Origin: an uncultured Hormoscilla sp.
Lineage (GTDB): Bacteria > Cyanobacteriota > Cyanobacteriia > Cyanobacteriales > Desertifilaceae
DNA length: 64,000 bases
Assembly (NCBI GenBank): GCA_963921275.4
Contig: OZ001293.3
Location: 6,432,001 to 6,496,000, forward strand
Reading direction: 5' to 3'
Part shown: one piece after another, positions 11,943 through 52,661 of the stretch
Layout of the letters: each line of letters opens with the position of its first letter
Position numbering within the stretch: position 1 is the first letter of the stretch
Position numbers and translations under genes: made by a program
Notes under the pieces: model-generated
The model's input: the letters and a program-made list of their open reading frames with translations, nothing else
What the model was told of the DNA's origin: nothing
The model's database searches: none

Positions 11943-11992
11943 GATAGAGCTAATGATGATGTGATGGCATCAGTCGATTGGGCAATGCAGTT

Positions 11993-12834
11993 TTAAGCCA
12001 GTCGCAAAACTTCCATCGCGTTCCCGAGAGCGTTCCGCAGTCGATAGCTAGCCCGGACGATCGCCCGCTGTTCGGGGATCCCCACGGAACTATAAGGTTC
12101 CGCAGCAGTGCGGTTGGGGCGGAAATAGGGATCGACCACTGCCATTGCTGCTTCATAGGCTTGTTCGACCGCATCGTCAACCGTGGAATCCGAGGCTTGT
12201 ACGGCAGTTGCAAAGGGCCAATATTGGCTGATTATACCGTTCCAGTTTTCTTTGAGATCAGGAGACTTTGGTCAGACCAGGTTTCTTCTTCGCCGCAAAT
12301 CTTCTTCGCTGACACCTCTGTGGCCAAGGCCATCATGCCCTCAAAATGCATGGTGGCATTGAAGTTCTGCCCCTGATTCAAATCGGATCTCAGGGTTCTG
12401 ACGCTCCTGACTAGCCTCCGTGCATAGCGGAGAGCCCGATCGATGTTCTCATCCCGGTACAAAAGGGCCTCAATCCGGTGAAACCCCTTAAATTCTCGGT
12501 TTAATTCTCCCCCATCAAAACCAGCGGGACGAGCATCAATATCTCGGTCCGTTTGTTCAAAACTTGCTGCCAAAACCTCGATTTGCTCGTAGGGGGGACG
12601 CGCTTCAACGTAGGCATTTTTGGCCCTTTCCAGATTGCCACTCTCAATTGCTGCTAACAGGTCTCGGACTAGACCCAACTGTATCCGGCCTGAGTCCGAA
12701 AATACTCCAAGCCCGCCTCCACCTGAGCCCCGTAGCGTGGTGGCATGGACATTTGTGCCGAACCAGGCCGAACTAGCTGGATCGCGCAACGCCGTCGCGC
12801 TATGGACATGAATAAATAAATCTACCTTCCTCAA
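11993..12834 (-). pseudogene. EfeM/EfeO (imelysin-like) iron-uptake protein, frameshifted and lacking its normal N-terminus
   Basis: ARPPYEQIE, FKGFHRIE, GEEETWSD. A 1-nt deletion near 12255; the shifted frame continues KENWNGIISQY..MEVLRLA*. Confidence 0.75.
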
Positions 12835-12837
12835 TTC

Positions 12838-14169
12838 TCAATTCCGCAATTTCAGAATCTGGGCCGTCACCGCCAGACTTTCCTCATAAAGCATATCCCG
12901 ACCCCAGCGTTCTAATTGCTGAGACATCAGAGACTCGGCTTTTTGGTTGCTCAAAGGTGTCACCTGTTCTGTGCGGCATTTCTGGGCAGTTCCCCCAGCT
13001 TCCATCCGCATACATCCTATGGTTTCAGAACAGAGAATCGTGCAGCAATCAGCATTAGTATTGCTAGAAGCTAGAAGCAAGCCTACTAGATCTCCGGGAA
13101 TTTCTCCCCAGTCCGCTGTGGGAATTCCTGCTAATTCTGTTTCGATCGCGCGCCCTTGGGATCCCATCAACTTGATATGTATGATATCATAGTCTCCAGC
13201 TTCCTCACTGTAGGACACGGGTTTCCAATCTAAGCGACTAGCTAGCCAACCTAAAAACATCAGTGCTTGGGCCGTATTCCCCTTCTGATAGTCAATAGTC
13301 ACCCGGTCTACTTCTACCAAAGCTGCGCGACGTTCTGGCGGATCGAAAGTCGCCGCAGTCAACTCTTGCCAAGCTGAAAGTCGATGCCAATTGAGATCGG
13401 CAACATAGGTTTGGGACTCGATCAACTCCTGCATTTTCAGAAATTCGGCGGCGGGATCGCTGAAGTAGCAAGAGTCCATTACAATACAGTTACTCGTTTC
13501 CGCTAGATGCCCAAACAAGGGCTGTTCGGGATTAGGCGTAGCCTTCCACCAGACAAACTTGGGCAGATCCGGTATCATCAGGGAGGAAACTGTATCGCTT
13601 ACCCTTTCCAGAGCATCCTTAGTACCTCGCAGAGTGATGTATTCGCAGCATACCAGACTGGTATTGCTACTTTTTTGAATCGGGCAATAGGCAGAAACCT
13701 GTGCCGTTACTCCTCGATCTTCTCCTAACTCCGGACACAGGGTAATGATCCGGCAGGGATTTTGCGATGCGATCGCATCACTAAGACTAAATCCCCTCAT
13801 GTTCAGATTAGATACTTCTGTGTACTCGGACGATTGCTGAGCAAATTTCTCACGCAGCTTTGCCAATGTTTCCCGGTTAACTAGACCTGTCTCTCTCAGT
13901 CCGTAAGCCTTTTGAGCTTGTTTTACCGCTGCCTTGGTCTTGGGTCCATGAATGCTATCGATCGGACCATCGTAAAATCCCAAACCTCCCAGTAATTGCT
14001 GGAATTCTTCTGGCTCATAGATCGCCATGCTAAATGTCGCCGCCCTCGTGGCAACGGGAGAAGCTTTACCGCTATTTTGGGTCAGCCATATTTTACTCAA
14101 TTCTGCCTCTATTTCCCCCAGGGAGATATCTTTGGGTTTTTGCAGGGCAACAATTGGAGTTGCTGTCAT
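12838..14169 (-). CDS. opcA: Glucose-6-phosphate dehydrogenase assembly protein OpcA
   Basis: Downstream of zwf; PCRIITLCP, CCEYITLRG, DLNWHRL; peptidoglycan-binding-like insert. Confidence 0.95.
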   Translation of the reverse strand: MTATPIVALQKPKDISLGEIEAELSKIWLTQNSGKASPVATRAATFSMAIYEPEEFQQLLGGLGFYDGPIDSIHGPKTKAAVKQAQKAYGLRETGLVNRETLAKLREKFAQQSSEYTEVSNLNMRGFSLSDAIASQNPCRIITLCPELGEDRGVTAQVSAYCPIQKSSNTSLVCCEYITLRGTKDALERVSDTVSSLMIPDLPKFVWWKATPNPEQPLFGHLAETSNCIVMDSCYFSDPAAEFLKMQELIESQTYVADLNWHRLSAWQELTAATFDPPERRAALVEVDRVTIDYQKGNTAQALMFLGWLASRLDWKPVSYSEEAGDYDIIHIKLMGSQGRAIETELAGIPTADWGEIPGDLVGLLLASSNTNADCCTILCSETIGCMRMEAGGTAQKCRTEQVTPLSNQKAESLMSQQLERWGRDMLYEESLAVTAQILKLRN

Positions 14170-14253: not shown

Positions 14254-14751
14254 TTAAAGTCTACGCCAGCGCCGACCATCTCGATTTAAGAGAAATTCTG
14301 CTTCCACAGGTTCCCAGGTTCCTGCTTCATAAAGAGGAATCGCCTCCGGAGGGGCCGGGGCATCCCAAACTTCCAACAGAGGAGTGAGTACCTGCCAGGA
14401 AGCTTCCACTTCATCTCCTCGGGTGAACAGAGTCTGGTCTCCTAACATGCAATCTATCAGCAGACGACTGTAGGCATCCGTGTTTGGTTTACCAAAAGCC
14501 GTATCGTAACGAAAATCCATATCCACCGATCGGGTGCGCAGGGAATTACCCGGAGTTTTCACCTCAAACCGCATAGAAATCCCTTCATTGGGCTGAATTC
14601 GCAGAGCCAAAACATTAGGATTCATCTGTTTCGCCGCCGACTGGAACATCATATACGGCACTTCTTTGAACTGGATGGCGATTTCCGTTACCTTCTTGGG
14701 CATCCGCTTACCCGTGCGCAGATAAAAAGGCACTCCCTTCCAGCGCCAGTT
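14254..14751 (-). CDS. zwf: Glucose-6-phosphate dehydrogenase, exon 2
   Basis: Begins [16 protein letters not shown]; joins exon 1 in frame to give 509 aa. Confidence 0.95.
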
Positions 14752-15684
14752 GGTCGGGGTCGAGCTGGGAATCACTCCCCAACCCTCCCTTTCGGAACCG
14801 GACTTGCGACTTTCACCGCATCCGGCTACTGGTTGGTAAGCTGTTGTCATCAGTAGGATTATTGGGTTACCCCGTATTCCCCTTACCCTCTGTAATTTTA
14901 CCCCTTATGGTCAATCCTATTGGACCGTTAATGATTTCAGCTCCGGAAGGTATGCGCTGCGCGCACGCTGCGCGATCGCGGAGGGTAGTTCAGCAAACCA
15001 TTCTAGCCGCTCTTCTCTAACATTTCCCCATTCTGGCAATTTATCGGGGCTCTGAACTTTACCCGGCTGAGACTCTAGTCCATATTCATACTTTTGGATT
15101 TCTCCTAAGTTTTGCGACGTGTTAGGGCTACTTTCACCAAAGGCTTCTTACCATATCCGTCCTACGTCTGCATATCCCAGGCATTACCCCAGGCGTTGGC
15201 TTCTTAGAACATCCTTCCTCTTCGCGGCTTGCGCTTTACATCTAACTGGTCCAAATGGGGACAGCTCACGTGAGGTTACTTCGTTCCCTGGTATCATTTC
15301 TCGATGCTTTTAGGTTCCTGCTATACCCCGGGAGTTCTTCGAGTGCGATGCTGGTAAGCAAATACTACCAACACTAACTGCCATTTCCCTTTTGGGCCAG
15401 CGTATAAGCCTTATTCCGCTGGTTCTTATTAACGAGGCTTTCACAGGTTCGCTTGTTCTAACCATGAGCATCTTTCCTAGCGGTGTCACTAGCTTAGGCT
15501 GCTAGCTATCCTACATTTAAGTCCTAGCTCCGCACCACGGCGATGTGACTCCGCAGCACTAAGGACCGGTGTTACCCCCACACCTGGGGAGAGGGAATTT
15601 AACCCCCATGATAACCAGAGTTATCCGGCAAATGAAACCAGACCAGACTTCACCGTCGCCAGTTTACGCCTGAACGAATCGCAC
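14752..15684 (-). mobile_element. ORF-less group II intron in zwf (933 nt)
   Basis: 5' GTGCG at 15684. Domain V TAGCCGGATGCGGTGAAAGTCGCAAGTCCGGTT, then domain VI ending CCCCGACC. Removal restores LYVD|NWRW. Confidence 0.95.
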
Positions 15685-16716
15685 ATCTACATATAACTTC
15701 AAAGCTGCATAAGTGGGAGTAGTTGTATTGGGATCGGCCCCCTCTTCTTCCCGATAGCCCGGCACTTGCTTGCCATTCATCCAACCCGCCGTGTATTGAC
15801 CCCGAATGGCCGATCGATCCAAATTTTCCAAATCTGCTAGGTGCGTCGCCTGGACAACTTTTACCTTTTCACTCCGAATGCTGTCAGCATCCAAGCCGTT
15901 CGGCGGTTCCATTGCTGTCAGACAAAACAGTTGCATCAGGTGATTTTGCACCATGTCCCGCAAGGCCCCAGAGGATTCGTAATAACCTGCCCGCCCTTCT
16001 AGACCTACCTTTTCCGCCACTGTGATTTGCACGTGATCGACAAACTGACGATTCCACAGGGGTTCAAAAATCGCATTGGCAAACCGAAACACTAACAAAT
16101 TCTGCACCGTTTCTTTGCCCAGGTAATGGTCGATACGGTAAATCTGCTCTTCCGCACATACCTGACGCACGATCTGATTCAGCACTTGGGCCGATCCCAG
16201 GTCTCGACCAAAAGGTTTTTCGATTACTAGCCGCTGCTTTCTGGGATCCCGAAGCATTCCGACACTTCCCAGTTGCTGGGTAGCTTCTCCAAAGAATCGG
16301 GGTGCCACAGATAGGTAAAATACCCGATTCCCTCGCGTACCTCGTTGTTCGTCTAGTTCCCCCAAGAATGCTTTCAGCTTCTGGTAGCTTTCCGGTTTGT
16401 CAATGTCCCCAGAACAATAGAATAGCCCTTTAGCAAATCGCGACCAGATTTCTTCTCTACCCAGTCCACCGCCAAACTCTTCCACTCCTATCCGCATCTG
16501 TTTGCGGAAATAATCGTGACTCCAGTCTCGTCGCGCCACCCCCACGATCGTCAGTTCTGGGGGCAGTTTGTGCTCTAACATCATCTGATAGAGGGCGGGA
16601 ACGAGCTTTCTCTGGGTTAAGTCCCCAGATGCACCGAATATTACCAGAATTTGCGGTTCTGGCATCCGGTCATGTTGCAGTCCCACTCGTAAGGGATTTT
16701 CCAATAGCGTTACCAT
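15685..16716 (-). CDS. zwf: Glucose-6-phosphate dehydrogenase, exon 1
   Basis: [29 protein letters not shown]; 344 codons ending LYVD. Confidence 0.96.
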
Positions 16717-16799: not shown

Positions 16800-17936
16800 C
16801 TATGCTGGCACCAACTGTTTAACCTTGTCTTCTAAGGACTTCATCAGGGTATCGAAGGGCTTGACGAATTTATCAATCCCCTCTTCCAGCAATTGGGCCA
16901 TCACTTCATCTAGGTTGATGTTTACTTCCTTGAGGGTTTCCATCAACTTGTAGGCTGCCTCTACGTCATTTTCCACCCGGTTATCGACATCACAATGGTC
17001 CGTGCAGGCTACGATCGTGCTGGGTGGCAGGGTGTTCACCGTGTCCGGTCCTACCAGTTCATCCACGTACATCACGTCGCTGTATGTGGGGTTTTTCGTG
17101 CTCGTGCTGGCCCACAACAGCCGTTGCACTTGGGCACTTTTAGCCGACAGGGCTTTCCAGCGATCGCTCCGGATAATCTTCTTGTATTCTTGGTAGGCGA
17201 TTTTCGCGTTGGCGATCGCCACTTTCCCCTTTATCGAGAGCAGCTTGGCCTTGGACTCTTCATCAGCAGCAGCCGCCAACATCTTATCAACCCGGCTATC
17301 GATGTTACTATCGATCCGACTCAGGAAGAAACTCGCCACTGAAGCTATTTTGCTAATGTCTTGTCCAGCTGCTACCCTTTTCTCCAAGCCGCGAATGTAA
17401 GCCCATGCTGTCTGCACGTAGCTTTCCACCGAAAACAATAGAGTGATGTTGACATTTATTCCGTCCGCGATCGCCGCTTCCACTGCTGGCAAACCCTCTG
17501 CCGTTCCCGGAATCTTAATCATCACATTCGGACGTCCGATCGCCTGGTTATACCGCCGCGCTTCGGCGATCGTCGTTTCTGTATTTTTCGCAATTGTCGG
17601 CGGCACTTCAATACTCACATAACCATCCAGTCCCTGGGTCGCCTCATAGACTGGCAGAAACACATCACAAGCACCCCGGATATCATCAAACACCAGAGAT
17701 TCATAAATCTCCAGCACCGATTTATCAGCGCCAATTCCTGCTTCGATCTCCTCATGGTAGATTTTGTTACCTTTGATCGCCTTTTCAAAGATTGCTGGGT
17801 TAGAGGTAATCCCCTTAATTCCCCCCGTCTCCGTCATCTCTTTCAGTTCGCCCGACTTGATAATATCGCGGCTCAGATTATCCATCCAGATACTCTGACC
17901 GTAGGCTGAAATTTCTAACAGGTGATTGGTTGCCAT
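16800..17936 (-). CDS. tal: Transaldolase
   Basis: Probable start MATNHLL at 17936; GQSIWMDNL, TSNPAIF, MIKIPGT, LLWAST. Confidence 0.95.
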   Translation of the reverse strand: MATNHLLEISAYGQSIWMDNLSRDIIKSGELKEMTETGGIKGITSNPAIFEKAIKGNKIYHEEIEAGIGADKSVLEIYESLVFDDIRGACDVFLPVYEATQGLDGYVSIEVPPTIAKNTETTIAEARRYNQAIGRPNVMIKIPGTAEGLPAVEAAIADGINVNITLLFSVESYVQTAWAYIRGLEKRVAAGQDISKIASVASFFLSRIDSNIDSRVDKMLAAAADEESKAKLLSIKGKVAIANAKIAYQEYKKIIRSDRWKALSAKSAQVQRLLWASTSTKNPTYSDVMYVDELVGPDTVNTLPPSTIVACTDHCDVDNRVENDVEAAYKLMETLKEVNINLDEVMAQLLEEGIDKFVKPFDTLMKSLEDKVKQLVPA

Positions 17937-18348: not shown

Positions 18349-19467
18349 CTAAATCCTCGCAGCTGCACCCTTCTGCACAAACGACTCCACTAGGGCCACA
18401 TCATCTTTACTGCCAATAATCAGCGGCGTTCTGGCATGCAGTTTATCTGGCACCACGTCCAGAATATTCTGAGTGCCTGTGCTAGCCCTTCCTCCCGATT
18501 GCTCGATTAAAAAGGCTAAGGGAGCTGATTCGTATAGCAATCGCAATTTGCCCTCTGGTTTCTTCACCGTCCCCGGATACAAAAATACCCCGCCCTGGAA
18601 TAATATCCGATGGAAATCTCCCACTAGCGCTCCTCCATAACGAGCAGTATATCCTTCATGGCGATGCACGTAGCGGATATATTCCCGCATCGATTCATCC
18701 CACTGCCAGAAGTTGCCCTCATTTACACTATATATCGGACCGTGGGTTGGAGTTTCGATATTTTCACGACTGAGGATAAACTCTCCCAAGCTCGGGTCTA
18801 GGGTGAAGGCATGCACCCCCGTGCCGATCGAGTAGACTAGCATTGTACTGGGACCGTACAGAATATAACCTGCCGCCATTTGTTTCCGTCCATTCGCTAG
18901 CAAGTCCGCTGCCGTTCCATCTATATCCATCCCTTCTTGCTGGCGGATCGCGAAGATCGAACCCACATTCAGATTGATGTCCAGGTTGGAAGAGCCATCG
19001 ATCGGGTCATATATCAGTGTATGCCGTCCGATCGGGCAATTTTCCGGGATATAATATGGTTTTTCCATTTCCTCGGAAGCCATGCGGCAGACCAACCCGC
19101 TCTGCTTGAACACTGATATAAACACGTCATTAGCATAGACATCCATCTTTTTGACGGATTCTCCCTGCACATTTACCGTCCCTGTAAATCCCAGGGCATT
19201 CTCTAATAAACCCGATCGCGACAGGCGGCGCGATATGATCTTCCCCGCCAGGGCGATCCTATTCATCAGCGCACTTATATCTTGCGCGTCTGCCGAGAAG
19301 CTATGCAGTTGCTGCAGTACGTGACGAGACAGGGTCATGCAATCCCTGTCTAGGGCCCTTTCTTCCGCTATCTCTACATGGGTATCTACCATGTTTTTTC
19401 TTCCTACTTGATTGGCACTTGGTCTGGCGATGGCCTCCTGGGGCTTTACCTCTCCAAAGGCCGTCAT
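18349..19467 (-). CDS. fbp: Class 1 fructose-1,6-bisphosphatase (start may be at 19392)
   Basis: [20 protein letters not shown]. Confidence 0.95.
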
Positions 19468-25545: not shown

Positions 25546-26379
<834 letters not shown>

Positions 26380-27347: not shown

Positions 27348-29948
27348 ATGGCTATATTCAATGTTAGTACAGAAGCAGAACTCTCCCAAGCCATTACCGA
27401 TTCCAGGAATAATGGTATGTCAGATACCATTAACATCATGGGAGATATTACCCTGACCGGGTTGCTACCTCATATTGAAGAAGACGTCGGTCTCACGATA
27501 GAAGGAGACAACAACGTCATTGATGGCAACAACCAACACCGGCTGTTCTTTGTCCTCGACGGTAAAGTCAATTTCAACGAGCTGATCTTTAGGAACGGCC
27601 GGGCCCAGGGAGGTAATGGCGTCAGCGGAGCAGCAGGCATGGGCGGTGCCCTGTTTATCTATGACGGGACCATCACTGCGACCAATAGCACTTTCGAGAA
27701 TAATAGCGCCATTGGTGGCGACGCCGATTGCATCATCAAGATTGATTCTGCACTATCTAGTGGCAGTCTAGTAGGTGGTAATGCTAACTTTATCACTCCT
27801 ATTCCTGCTAATGATGGCGACGACGGCAAGGACGGCAGCGAGGACGGCGAGGACGGCGATTTCGGCGGCAACGGCGGCGACGGCAGCAGCTTCGGCGACG
27901 GCGGCGACGGCGGCTTTGGCGGCAACGGCGGCAACGGCGGCTTTATAGACTTTTGCGGCGGCCGCCGCTGCGGCTTTGGCGGCGGCGGCAGCAGCGGCAA
28001 CGGCGGCTTCGGCGGCTTCGGCGGCGGGGGCGGCATCGGCAACGGCGGCGGCGGCGGCTGCTTTGGCGGCGGCGACGGCAGCGACAACTTTGGCGGCCGC
28101 GGCGCGGGCATGGGCTCCGCCATATTCATTCGCTCAGGCACACTTGAGATTTCCAACAGCAGTTTTAACAGCAATATCGCCTTTGGTGGCACTGGCTATA
28201 ACTCCGGCCAAGGTCTGGGGGGCGCCATATTCGCCCTGCACCGCCTCACCAATACCAACGGGAACAACCAAGGCATGCCCGACGCTCTGCCGACCGTACT
28301 CTTTAGAAATAACCTAGAGTTCTCGGGTAATATAGCCGGAAACGTAAATGGAAATACCATAGACCTTAATAATATGGATGGGGTCGAGCCGGGAATCGCT
28401 TCCCGACCCTCCCTTGAGGAACCGGACTTGCGATTTTCACCGCATCCGGCTACTGGGTACTAGGCCCTTTTCATAGGTAGACTTAATAGGAATTACTTCC
28501 GTTAGCCCTTGCCGCCTGTCTTTTCTTCCCTTTCCTGGTTTAGCGAGTGGTTGTTCTGATAACCGTTAGTATCACCATTTTCAAGTCAGTTTTACCAGTT
28601 ATCCATACCTTATCCTCCACTTGCGTTTCGGATTAGTTCCGTGGCTTTTTAGGATTACTCATTCCAGCAGCTTCCTAGTATCACCGACCCACGTCAGCGC
28701 TGGCTACCCAGCATCATCTACATTACTGTAGATGTTATCCCAGGAATTACCCCGGGCATTCGCTTCTTGGGCCATCCCTTGAGGAACCGGACTTGCGATT
28801 TTCACCGCATCCGGCTACTGGGTACTAGGCCCTTTTCATAGGTAGACTTAATAGGAATTACTTCCGTTAGCTCTTGCCGCCTGTCTTTTCTTCCCTTTCC
28901 TGGTTTAGCGAGTGGTTGTTCTGATAACCGTTAGTATCACCATTTTCAAGTCAGTTTTACCAGTTATCCATACCTTATCCTCCACTTGCGTTTCGGATTA
29001 GTTCCGTGGCTTTTTAGGATTACTCATTCCAGCAGCTTCCTAGTATCACCGACCCACGTCAGCGCTGGCTACCCAGCATCATCTACATTACTGTAGATGT
29101 TATCCCAGGAATTACCCCGGGCATTCGCTTCTTGGGCCATCCCTCCCCCCGTGGCTTGCGCTTAACATCTAACTTGTCCTGATGGACAGCACACGAGAGG
29201 TTACTTCGTTCCCTAACAACATTTCGCGATACCTTTAGGTCCACACTATACCCCGGGAGCTATTTGAGTACTATATTAGCCAGAGTCTAAAACTAATACT
29301 AGCTACCATTTCTTTTTTAGGCCAGCGCATATAGCCTTATTTCGCTGGTTCCTTATAACGAGGCTTGCACATGTTTGCCTGCTCTAACCTTGGATATCTT
29401 TCCTAGCGGCGTCACCGGCTTAGGCTGCCAGTTATCCTACATTTGAGTCCTCGCTTAGCACCACGATGATGTCGCTTCGTAGCACCGAGGACCGGTGTCA
29501 CCCCCGTACCTGGGGGGAGGGGAATTTAACCCCCATGCGGTCAGAGTTCCCGGCTAATGAAACCGGGCTAGCGTTCCGTGTTTGACCACGTTAGGCTAGA
29601 ACGAATCGCACAGACTCCATTGGGTTAACAGGAGAAGATGAGAGGAACCTACTTGTCGGCGGCAGTGGAAATGATACCCTGATCGGCGGAAGCCGAGGAG
29701 ACTACCTTATCGGAGGAGAGGACGCCGATATTTTTGTTCTGAGGCCAACCACGGGTGCGGATCTCATCGTAGACTTTGAAAATGGCACGGACTTGATACG
29801 GCTAGCAGAAAGTTTGAGTTTCAATGATTTGGAAATCGTCCCTCAGGGCCAAAACACAGTGATTAACTATGAAGAGAAAACCATGGCCACTTTGTGGGGG
29901 ATTAATTCAATCCTGATTAATAGCGATGATTTTGCCATGGTAAATTGA
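27348..29948 (+). pseudogene. Glycine-rich secreted protein with an RTX/calcium-binding C-terminus, interrupted by an antisense intron
   Basis: Joining 28375 to 29612 gives ..DLNNI DSIGLTG..VGGSGNDTLIGG..GGEDADIFVL..DLIVDFENGTD..* ending at 29948. Confidence 0.85.
28376..29611 (-). mobile_element. ORF-less group II intron, antisense to its host gene, with a 365-nt internal tandem duplication
   Basis: GTGCG at 29611; domain V present twice; ends CCCCATCC at 28376. Confidence 0.92.
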
Positions 29949-41619: not shown

Positions 41620-42110
41620 AAACTCGGGGGACAGCACTACCCCCGAGACATCGTACTCGCACAAAAGGGGAGACGCTGGCTCCTGGCCTTCCGATTTTTC
41701 CGGAACGGTAGACGCGCTCATTCAAAGTCCGATGTCACCACTTACAAGAGTCGGACCGATCGCGCAGGGGTGTGGTCAAAACCCGTTGGTAGGAGGCCTC
41801 GCCTTCTGTGCGCCCCGGTCGCTCGATGTCTCCCGGGAGCTCGATGTCTCGGGGGAGCGCTAATCGCACTACCCCCGAGACATCGTAGTCGCACTACCCG
41901 GGAGATATCGTAACCGCACTACCCGGGGCGCACAGCCCGAACCCTAAAGGGTCCGGCTACAGGAACAAAGCCCGCCTGCGCGGGCTATTTACACGCATCT
42001 AAGATGCACCCGGCTATCAACTACTTGTGACCGCACCCAAGAGACCGCTCGCGTGTCTACTCGCACAAAAGGGGAGACATCGTACTCGCACAAAAGCTTA
42101 GACATCGACG
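41620..42110. repeat. Cluster of nested small palindromic repeats
   Basis: Several GCACTACCC, GAGACATCG and GCACAAAAGGGG modules plus REP-like units. Confidence 0.8.
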
Positions 42111-52166: not shown

Positions 52167-52661
52167 TGTCCAACCTCACTAAGCAAAATATAGCCCGCGC
52201 AGGCGGGCTTTGTTTGTCTGGCCCCACCCCTCGTTCCCACGGCTCTGCCTGGGAACGGGTTCCGGCGGTGGTGGCGACGCAAAAGTGAGATGCGCCCCCA
52301 CAACTCCTCCAAGGGTAATAGGAAAAGAGGGCTACCGGTTCTGAAGGGGAAGTCTGACTATAACCGGTGGTGACGAGCGCTCCCGGTTACAGGGTTACAG
52401 GGAGTCTGGGGGTCGTCTCGATGTCTCCTGTGTGCCGTTCCCGTAGGGTGGCGCAGCCATGTCCCCTGGGACAAGAGCTCTGGCAGAGATATCGAAGTCG
52501 GATTAGGCAAACAACAGTCGTATAATTGCGTTACATAACTTAACAATAATTAATATAGCAAGGGTAAAGGTTCGGTTATATTTAGTGGTTGAGAAAGAAC
52601 GAGAAAAAATTTCCTCGGTGCGATCGCCCTTATCGGTGCGATCGCCCATTCATTCTTTAGG

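Follow-up and report, generated by a model that had tools for sequence, protein, structure and literature searches.

The 64,000-nucleotide stretch analysed here (the window, to which positions refer unless another sequence is named) belongs to contig OZ001293.3 of an uncultured Hormoscilla sp. and carries the gene cluster fbp-tal-zwf-opcA, in which zwf, the gene for glucose-6-phosphate dehydrogenase (G6PDH), is interrupted by a group II intron without an open reading frame (ORF). An earlier sequence-only reading had proposed this 933-nucleotide (nt) insert between exons of 344 and 165 codons, and the proposal was borne out to the base (Table 1). Joined, the two minus-strand exons encode 509 amino acids (aa) with no further stop, and the junction reads TATGTAGAT followed directly by AACTGGCGC, with the junction peptide LYVDNWR. 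Exon 1 covers positions 2-322 of the TIGR00871 model (445.6 bits) and exon 2 positions 323-485, together a full-length equivalog match. As had also been claimed, the unspliced frame continues for six intron codons before it stops, leaving a 350-aa ORF; PF02781 is cut at position 137 of 296, so that a full-length G6PDH requires removal of the intron. The check for a second zwf that had been called for gave none in the genome, which is 96.7% complete.

Structure, boundaries and age of the zwf intron

The intron begins with GTGCG, which matches GUGYG, and ends with CCCCGACC. Its 3' end scores 47.7 bits against Rfam RF00029 (cut-off 40), and its domain V has 8/8 lower-stem pairs, a folding z of -3.0, the AGC triad, the bulge and a GNRA-type loop; folding of the whole intron was uninformative (z 0.0). 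The unpaired A of domain VI is the predicted branch point. On the sense strand no frame is open for more than 76 codons, and tblastn with intron-encoded proteins (IEPs) gave no significant match to the intron (best E 0.32). Judged by these searches, the intron is non-autonomous, its domain IV carrying neither a reverse transcriptase (RT)-maturase ORF nor a significant remnant of one. A short resemblance of domain IV to the start of an IEP was dropped, having no tblastn support.

Three types of exon-binding sites (EBS1 and EBS2) occur among 19 related copies, and each type fits its own 5' exons. EBS1 forms on average 5.2/6 pairs with targets of its own type against 2.2/6 with those of the other types, and the corresponding means for EBS2 are 4.5/6 and 2.6/6; a random site reaches 6/6 pairs with EBS1 plus at least 4 with EBS2 at a frequency of 0.0004. 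The 3' end is unusual. By convention a group IIB intron closes with AY and has its branch A in the eighth position from the 3' end, and the IEP-bearing introns of this genome end in AAT with the branch A eighth from the end. The zwf intron ends 8 nt past the branch A, in ACC rather than AY, and the same is seen in all short families; off the IIB convention in this respect, it is classed here as IIB-like, its 3' end being shifted. All 63 in-genome empty sites of sister copies (63/63) place the 3' end 8 nt past the branch A. The last base covaries with the position in J2/3 that we take to be gamma (193 short copies combine G with a final C, 23 combine A with a final T and 7 have other combinations, the count leaving 94 short copies not parsed and 11 not located), so the structure specifies where the intron ends. 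We use the labels epsilon-prime, gamma and J2/3 on the assumption that the usual group II conventions hold here. The first base of the 3' exon is A in 234 of the 333 short introns. Alignments to the empty sites of relatives, four RNA-library contigs of relatives that lack precisely these 933 nt, and the empty sites of sister copies fix the intron boundary independently.

Table 1. Features of the zwf locus in the window, with the interrupted gene and its intron first and the neighbouring genes last.
Feature	Position	Strand	Remarks
zwf exon 1	15685..16716	-	344 codons, ends LYVD; spans the NAD-binding domain and the C-terminal domain up to its position 137
zwf exon 2	14254..14751	-	165 codons and stop, starts NWRWKG; PF02781 positions 137-296
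ORF-less group II intron (IIB-like)	14752..15684	-	933 nt, phase 0
Stop codon of the unspliced zwf frame	15664..15666	-	after 6 intron codons
Domain V	14796..14827	-	AGC triad, 8-bp lower stem, 2-nt bulge, GAAA-containing loop; canonical
Domain VI hairpin	14757..14789	-	unpaired A at 14760, predicted branch A, ninth base from the 3' end
Intron-binding site 1 (IBS1, GTAGAT)	15685..15690	-	final six bases of exon 1; 6/6 pairs with EBS1, two of them G-U
Intron-binding site 2 (IBS2, GTTATA)	15692..15697	-	4/6 pairs with EBS2
EBS1 (ATTTGC)	15358..15363	-	covaries with target sites, 19 copies
EBS2 (AATAAG)	15425..15430	-	covaries with target sites, 19 copies
Presumed gamma nucleotide (G) in J2/3	15214..15214	-	intron position G471; partner is the terminal C
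AGC internal-loop motif of domain I, putative epsilon-prime	15527..15529	-	retained in the zwf copy; replaced in 16/18 aligned sisters
opcA	12838..14169	-	intact, downstream of zwf; TIGR00534 339 bits, above cut-off
Transaldolase (tal)	16800..17933	-	intact, upstream of zwf; NF002881 523 bits
Class 1 fructose-bisphosphatase (fbp)	18349..19467	-	intact; NF006778 482 bits; first gene of the cluster

The zwf site is empty in 4/4 same-genus genomes, where the exons are contiguous, and in 8/8 relatives fetched the joined coding sequence aligns without a gap at the junction. The nearest congener, 98.4% identical, has an empty site, which dates the insertion, on this sequence comparison, after the split from that congener and makes it recent. 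With an insertion this young, intact exons alone do not show selection, and the absence of any other lesion, from which the sequence-only reading had argued that splicing is selected, is a weak argument. Since the split the zwf exons have gained eight private changes, 4 of them synonymous and 4 non-synonymous, and with so few dN/dS on that branch cannot test selection. Compared with its 13 closest sisters, the intron has zero private bases. It is a mosaic in which one EBS block and the canonical 3' block both recur in other copies.

The insert is real and no assembly artefact: in 4/4 runs, from three samples, exon-identical contigs enter the intron at each end, and no contig has the exons joined (the kind of runs X6-X9 is unrecorded, though they resemble DNA, and contigs drop rare forms). 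The intron-bearing allele is the sole zwf allele seen in the three samples. RNA data had been proposed as a check of the junction, and contigs of the RNA libraries X1-X4 do skip precisely 933 nt at zwf, yet they are ~5% diverged from the window. For X1 the differences amount to 24/501 and 49/1082 letters, and the intergenic parts of these contigs differ as well. The skip was rejected as a sign of splicing, the contigs coming from relatives, and all congeners lack the intron in their DNA.

Within the cluster opcA, tal and fbp are intact, as is gnd, located elsewhere in the genome; a promoter scan gave no signal above chance. In Synechococcus elongatus zwf and opcA are required under light-dark cycles, and zwf has its peak at dusk and is important during the night, according to the excerpted text of that source (10.1101/283812). 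Neighbouring accessory genes had been described as decayed, and a spot check agreed in one case, an imelysin-family gene apparently split into two ORFs (11950-12834, minus strand). Inside the intron lies a HIP1 octamer with an adjoining 21-nt GC-rich repeat (14953-14979); the repeat has 38 occurrences in the chromosome and HIP1 9476 over both strands.

Group II introns across the chromosome

The zwf intron is one case of a genome-wide intron swarm. As a query, its 933 nt found 44 full-length matches in the chromosome. A census with nhmmer gave 481 hits to domains V and VI, 406 of them paired with a 5' end and 402 with both ends defined; 333 of these 402 bounded introns are short and ORF-less. 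Five of the 402 entries were dropped as doubtful pairings (cores >2.6 kb), and the 397 retained introns make up 6.2% of the chromosome. By context, 48 are nested in other introns, 81 lie in sense and in frame (on the sense strand of ORFs of at least 150 aa), 42 are antisense, 16 are at ORF edges and 210 are elsewhere. A regular-expression census of domain V had returned 0 hits and was replaced by the nhmmer profiles, and a genome search with RF00029 scored 150 of 867 candidates and is not a census. One family has more than 130 copies at an identity of at least 99%. The introns are recent and lineage-specific and, to judge from such near-identical copies, apparently still spreading.

The sequence-only reading had raised the possibility of a trans-acting maturase, and candidates are present. 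Among 55 ORFs with RT motifs, 21 are at least 550 aa long, 20 of these with both YADD and an HNH-like motif; two were tested and both carry RVT_N, RVT_1, GIIM and HNH domains. Proteins from these ~20 long RT-maturase ORFs are candidates for action in trans. The solved structure closest to an IEP of the genome is PDB 6me0 (E 3e-109), which we take to be the TeI4h maturase, and the Pfam domains together with this match suggest a CL affinity for the IEP-bearing introns.

Host genes were scanned against NCBIfam at E 1e-25, covering 70/82 sense rows and 30/42 antisense rows; the rows omitted were duplicates, RT ORFs, ORFs of non-coding codon use, a dnaG artefact and two window genes scanned separately. 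Genes split in sense include ribD, nrdJ, eno, prfC, queG, gltB, recJ, bicA and ectB. At E 1e-8 no paralogs were found for ribD, nrdJ, eno, queG and a fatty acid desaturase, and only distant GTPases for prfC. The single-copy genes eno, nrdJ, ribD, queG and prfC are interrupted solely in sense and in frame, and no single-copy housekeeping gene turned up split among the 30 antisense-hit ORFs that were scanned. Neither an NrdA-type nor an NrdD reductase was found in the genome, where the PF02867 search missed the genome's own nrdJ and so rules out NrdA-type enzymes only. Interrupted at codon 264 of 429 (eno), codon 107 (nrdJ) and codon 86 (prfC), these three genes would not work unspliced; ribD, queG and bicA, interrupted within ~20 codons of their ends, might. 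Congeners for which both flanks were listed have empty sites at eno, nrdJ and prfC too. In one congener eno holds, at codon 294/295, a group II intron of 2.4 kb that encodes a 608-aa RT-maturase-HNH protein (G004:C14:8900-12900). It lies 30 codons from the ORF-less eno intron described here, is a different intron and was acquired independently.

Some rows did not survive inspection. An apparent dnaG intron, in which a spurious 5' end was wrongly paired with a domain V, was removed, and 'antisense' rows for chlD and ychF proved to lie upstream of the modelled start. A metH copy (G000:C1:1408500-1414500) with an in-frame intron and later frameshifts was dropped, a second metH-like copy, 68% identical, being present. 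After intron removal nrdJ has 1157 codons here against ~1446 in the congener G002, whose gene carries an extra in-frame insert; inteins are possibly involved.

Further ORF-less introns lie in the window itself. The second, at 25546-26379 (plus strand), is 834 nt long, belongs to a large family ending in ACT and sits in sense and in frame in an ORF of 159 codons, whose first exon has no Pfam hit. The third, at 28376-29611 (minus strand), belongs to an 871-nt family and is 1236 nt long, with a tandem duplication of ~365 nt, from domain III to domain V, that gives it two domain V copies. Elsewhere, two genes (G000:C1:3351297-3353182 and 6725628-6727774) each have two in-frame ORF-less introns. 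Single Rfam CRISPR-DR28 hits of 36.6 bits at 41964-41987 (plus strand) and 52191-52214 (minus strand) are probably a dispersed short repeat. Contig C3 of the assembly, 31 kb with 17.6% G+C against 47% for the genome, is likely foreign to the organism.

Proposed splicing of zwf and the alternatives

We consider it likely that a recent, protein-less intron in the sole zwf is removed from the fbp-tal-zwf-opcA transcript with a borrowed maturase, restoring the 509-residue G6PDH. The intron would have reached zwf by retrohoming, that is, by EBS-guided reverse splicing and reverse transcription by a trans-acting IEP. It would leave the mRNA through the same EBS pairing, with a trans-acting maturase and by the lariat pathway at the bulged A. 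The need of night metabolism for G6PDH would then let selection keep the zwf copy splicing-competent, and sister copies in dispensable DNA would gather changes disrupting their domain V and AGC loop.

The contrast between canonical and mispaired copies and a bias towards the sense strand are stronger, if indirect, evidence of selection on splicing. Domain V is mispaired in 15/18 aligned sisters of the zwf intron and canonical in the zwf copy; canonical forms make up 4/19 aligned copies, and 3/19 have both domain V and the AGC loop intact, namely those in zwf, in nrdJ and in an NlpC/P60 gene. The AGC loop is retained by both large young families and gone from 16/18 zwf sisters. Unique outer sites of short introns, 274 in all, include 62 in genes in sense and 26 antisense (P 8e-5 against 50:50). 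With target-site preference modelled, the bias is 27 versus 16 (P 0.033) and 21 versus 2 (P 0.0014) in the two large families. Among 19 sense in-frame insertions of the minor families, the copies in zwf, eno, nrdJ and recJ are canonical in 4/4 cases against 1/15 of the others (Fisher P 0.0013; 0.0027 with four insertion sequence copies collapsed; P 0.019 for the canonical housekeeping copies against all 92 minor-family copies), a comparison for which the housekeeping class was set post hoc, after the data had been seen.

That choice of class is one of several points that weigh against splicing of zwf under selection. For the zwf-like family and one related family the modelled sense bias is 10 versus 4 (P 0.45). 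Over all 333 short introns domain V is intact in 59/72 sense copies and 176/217 others (P 1.0), a lack of difference that comes from the two big young families, almost all of whose copies are canonical. Fourteen sense insertions with mispaired domain V and 35 distinct ORFs interrupted in antisense show that gene loss is tolerated. The zwf EBS2 pairs at 4/6 positions only. Spliced zwf RNA of this strain was not seen in the contigs of X1-X4 or X6-X9, and splicing in this strain is what we infer from the sequence features. No cognate maturase was identified when the ORF-less family was compared with the IEP-bearing introns, since the zwf-type family shares only blocks of 40-80 nt with them.

Several minor families show a further pattern, in which purine-rich motifs (domain V loop, domain V 3' strand, linker between domains V and VI, AGC loop) have given way to runs of mostly pyrimidines, for example CTCTT and CTCC, one replacement being an exact micro-inversion (examples at G000:C1:221733-222667 and 783604-784530). 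Of the 33 minor-family copies with a paired AGC loop, 31 also have a mispaired domain V. The presence of mispaired copies at many EBS-matched sites may reflect conversion after insertion, as mosaic tracts suggest, or it may reflect movement with help in trans.

The best surviving alternative, which we regard as unlikely, is that zwf is a fresh pseudogene: a recent intron that splices poorly or not at all in vivo, in a gene-losing genome, between exons too young to have decayed. The empty site in 4/4 congeners, the lack of any private intron base, private exon changes too few for testing, the frameshifted metH copy, the many genes hit in antisense and the 4/6 pairing of EBS2 would all fit such a history. 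It sits less well with a zwf copy among just 3/19 family copies that keep both the canonical domain V and the AGC loop, and with the intron allele being the only one seen in three samples. The remainder of the oxidative pentose phosphate pathway tested intact, and single-copy eno and nrdJ with related canonical introns make working splicing very likely in this genome.

Protein-free self-splicing in vivo, as in the ORF-less intron of Clostridium tetani, is improbable. Spread to many EBS-matched sites requires a reverse transcriptase, and some IEP must therefore bind these RNAs. Moreover, the parts of two sources considered here describe bacterial ORF-less introns as nearly always accompanying IEP-bearing relatives and report trans action as demonstrated in a cyanobacterium (PMC4424553, PMC4649490).

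The sequence-only reading had further suggested that splicing could act as a regulatory step, and this suggestion found no support. Recruitment of splicing as a light-dark gate on G6PDH could appeal to the dusk peak and night role of zwf in S. elongatus (10.1101/283812), to the response of group II splicing to cold (PMC7293003) and to the reduction of host mRNA that group II introns can cause (PMC6003770), all as given in excerpts of these sources. The site, however, is empty in 4/4 congeners, and the lineage-specific intron is a mosaic of its sisters with no private change; it is one of 81 in-frame insertions in unrelated genes and has no light or redox sequence feature. We give such a gate little credence. 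A passive cost or condition-dependence, common to all introns and no adaptation, is plausible, and the zwf intron is probably a tolerated selfish element that lowers zwf output somewhat, rather than an evolved switch.

A two-piece enzyme made from unspliced mRNA is hardly credible: the 350-aa N-terminal ORF and a 198-aa ORF, which opens at an in-frame ATG inside the intron (14850), do exist and jointly span PF00479 and PF02781, but the break falls mid-domain, the ATG belongs to the canonical 3' block common to unrelated copies, no purine-rich ribosome-binding site precedes it, and stable hairpins of domains V and VI follow just after.

The split zwf resembles a pseudogene yet is probably expressed, so metabolic reconstructions of this lineage in which intron-split genes are discarded would lack, in error, enolase, ribonucleotide reductase and the oxidative pentose phosphate pathway. 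For the genome as a whole we lean slightly towards the view that it stands partway to an organelle-like system. In such a system ~20 maturases would serve ~330 protein-less introns, and central metabolism (zwf, eno, nrdJ, ribD, prfC, gltB) would depend on them. Selection would be legible in the sequence itself, because copies in needed genes would keep the catalytic motifs as sisters elsewhere are converted to broken forms. Invasion of core genes would be repeated across the genus, because a congener independently acquired its eno intron.

Comparison with known systems

The comparisons with bacterial systems draw on parts of the sources cited. In bacteria, group II introns are described there as mostly staying out of housekeeping genes and as rarely lacking an ORF (PMC4424553). 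Trichodesmium already provides cyanobacterial examples of ORF-less introns in housekeeping genes, and the zwf case stands out by its setting, with a very large intron load, essential genes dependent on splicing and the contrast between canonical and broken copies. In Trichodesmium 17 introns splice in vivo, 10 of them ORF-less (PMC4649490, PMC4143802). As here, ORF-less group II introns occupy housekeeping genes there (nrdJ, thymidylate synthase, IMP dehydrogenase and DNA polymerase III), and self-splicing or trans-encoded maturases are needed. The 17 verified introns of Trichodesmium lie in 10 genes, against ~400 introns here with 81 in frame, the hosts here including zwf, eno, prfC, ribD and gltB; splicing has been shown there and is inferred here.

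In Thermosynechococcus elongatus driver IEPs mobilise the ORF-less TeI3 (PMC2882425). The TeI3/TeI4 introns (IIB1) resemble the present swarm in that ORF-less copies outnumber IEP-bearing ones, families differing in EBS retrohome to matching sites, twintrons occur and IEPs act in trans. They differ in number and placement, with 28 introns, few of them within genes (PMC2882425). TeI3 is TeI4 minus one DIVb deletion, with ORF remnants visible, an origin that the zwf intron does not match; compared with TeI3, the short families here also end one base farther from the branch A, and many copies have a mispaired domain V. Arthrospira platensis, another filamentous cyanobacterium, shares an expansion of CL-type group II introns, and its 101 introns topped a survey of 1,790 representative bacterial genomes (PMC8919778). 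Against this stand 397-402 bounded copies and 481 hits to domains V and VI here, by a different counting method. A literature search, with most subscription journals and all supplementary tables outside its scope, turned up no publication that describes a group II intron in a cyanobacterial zwf and none on a bacterial swarm of this size, where supplementary intron-count tables could hold similar cases.

Organellar introns are alike in being ORF-less, in residing in essential genes and in requiring trans factors. They are ancient, fixed and immobile, whereas the introns described here are recent, lineage-specific and apparently spreading. With about four times the highest surveyed count, canonical and broken sisters sorted by the need for the host gene, and congeners that serve as intron-free controls at the sites, this genome makes testable the origin of a shared trans-acting splicing apparatus, a step thought to precede organellar and spliceosomal introns.

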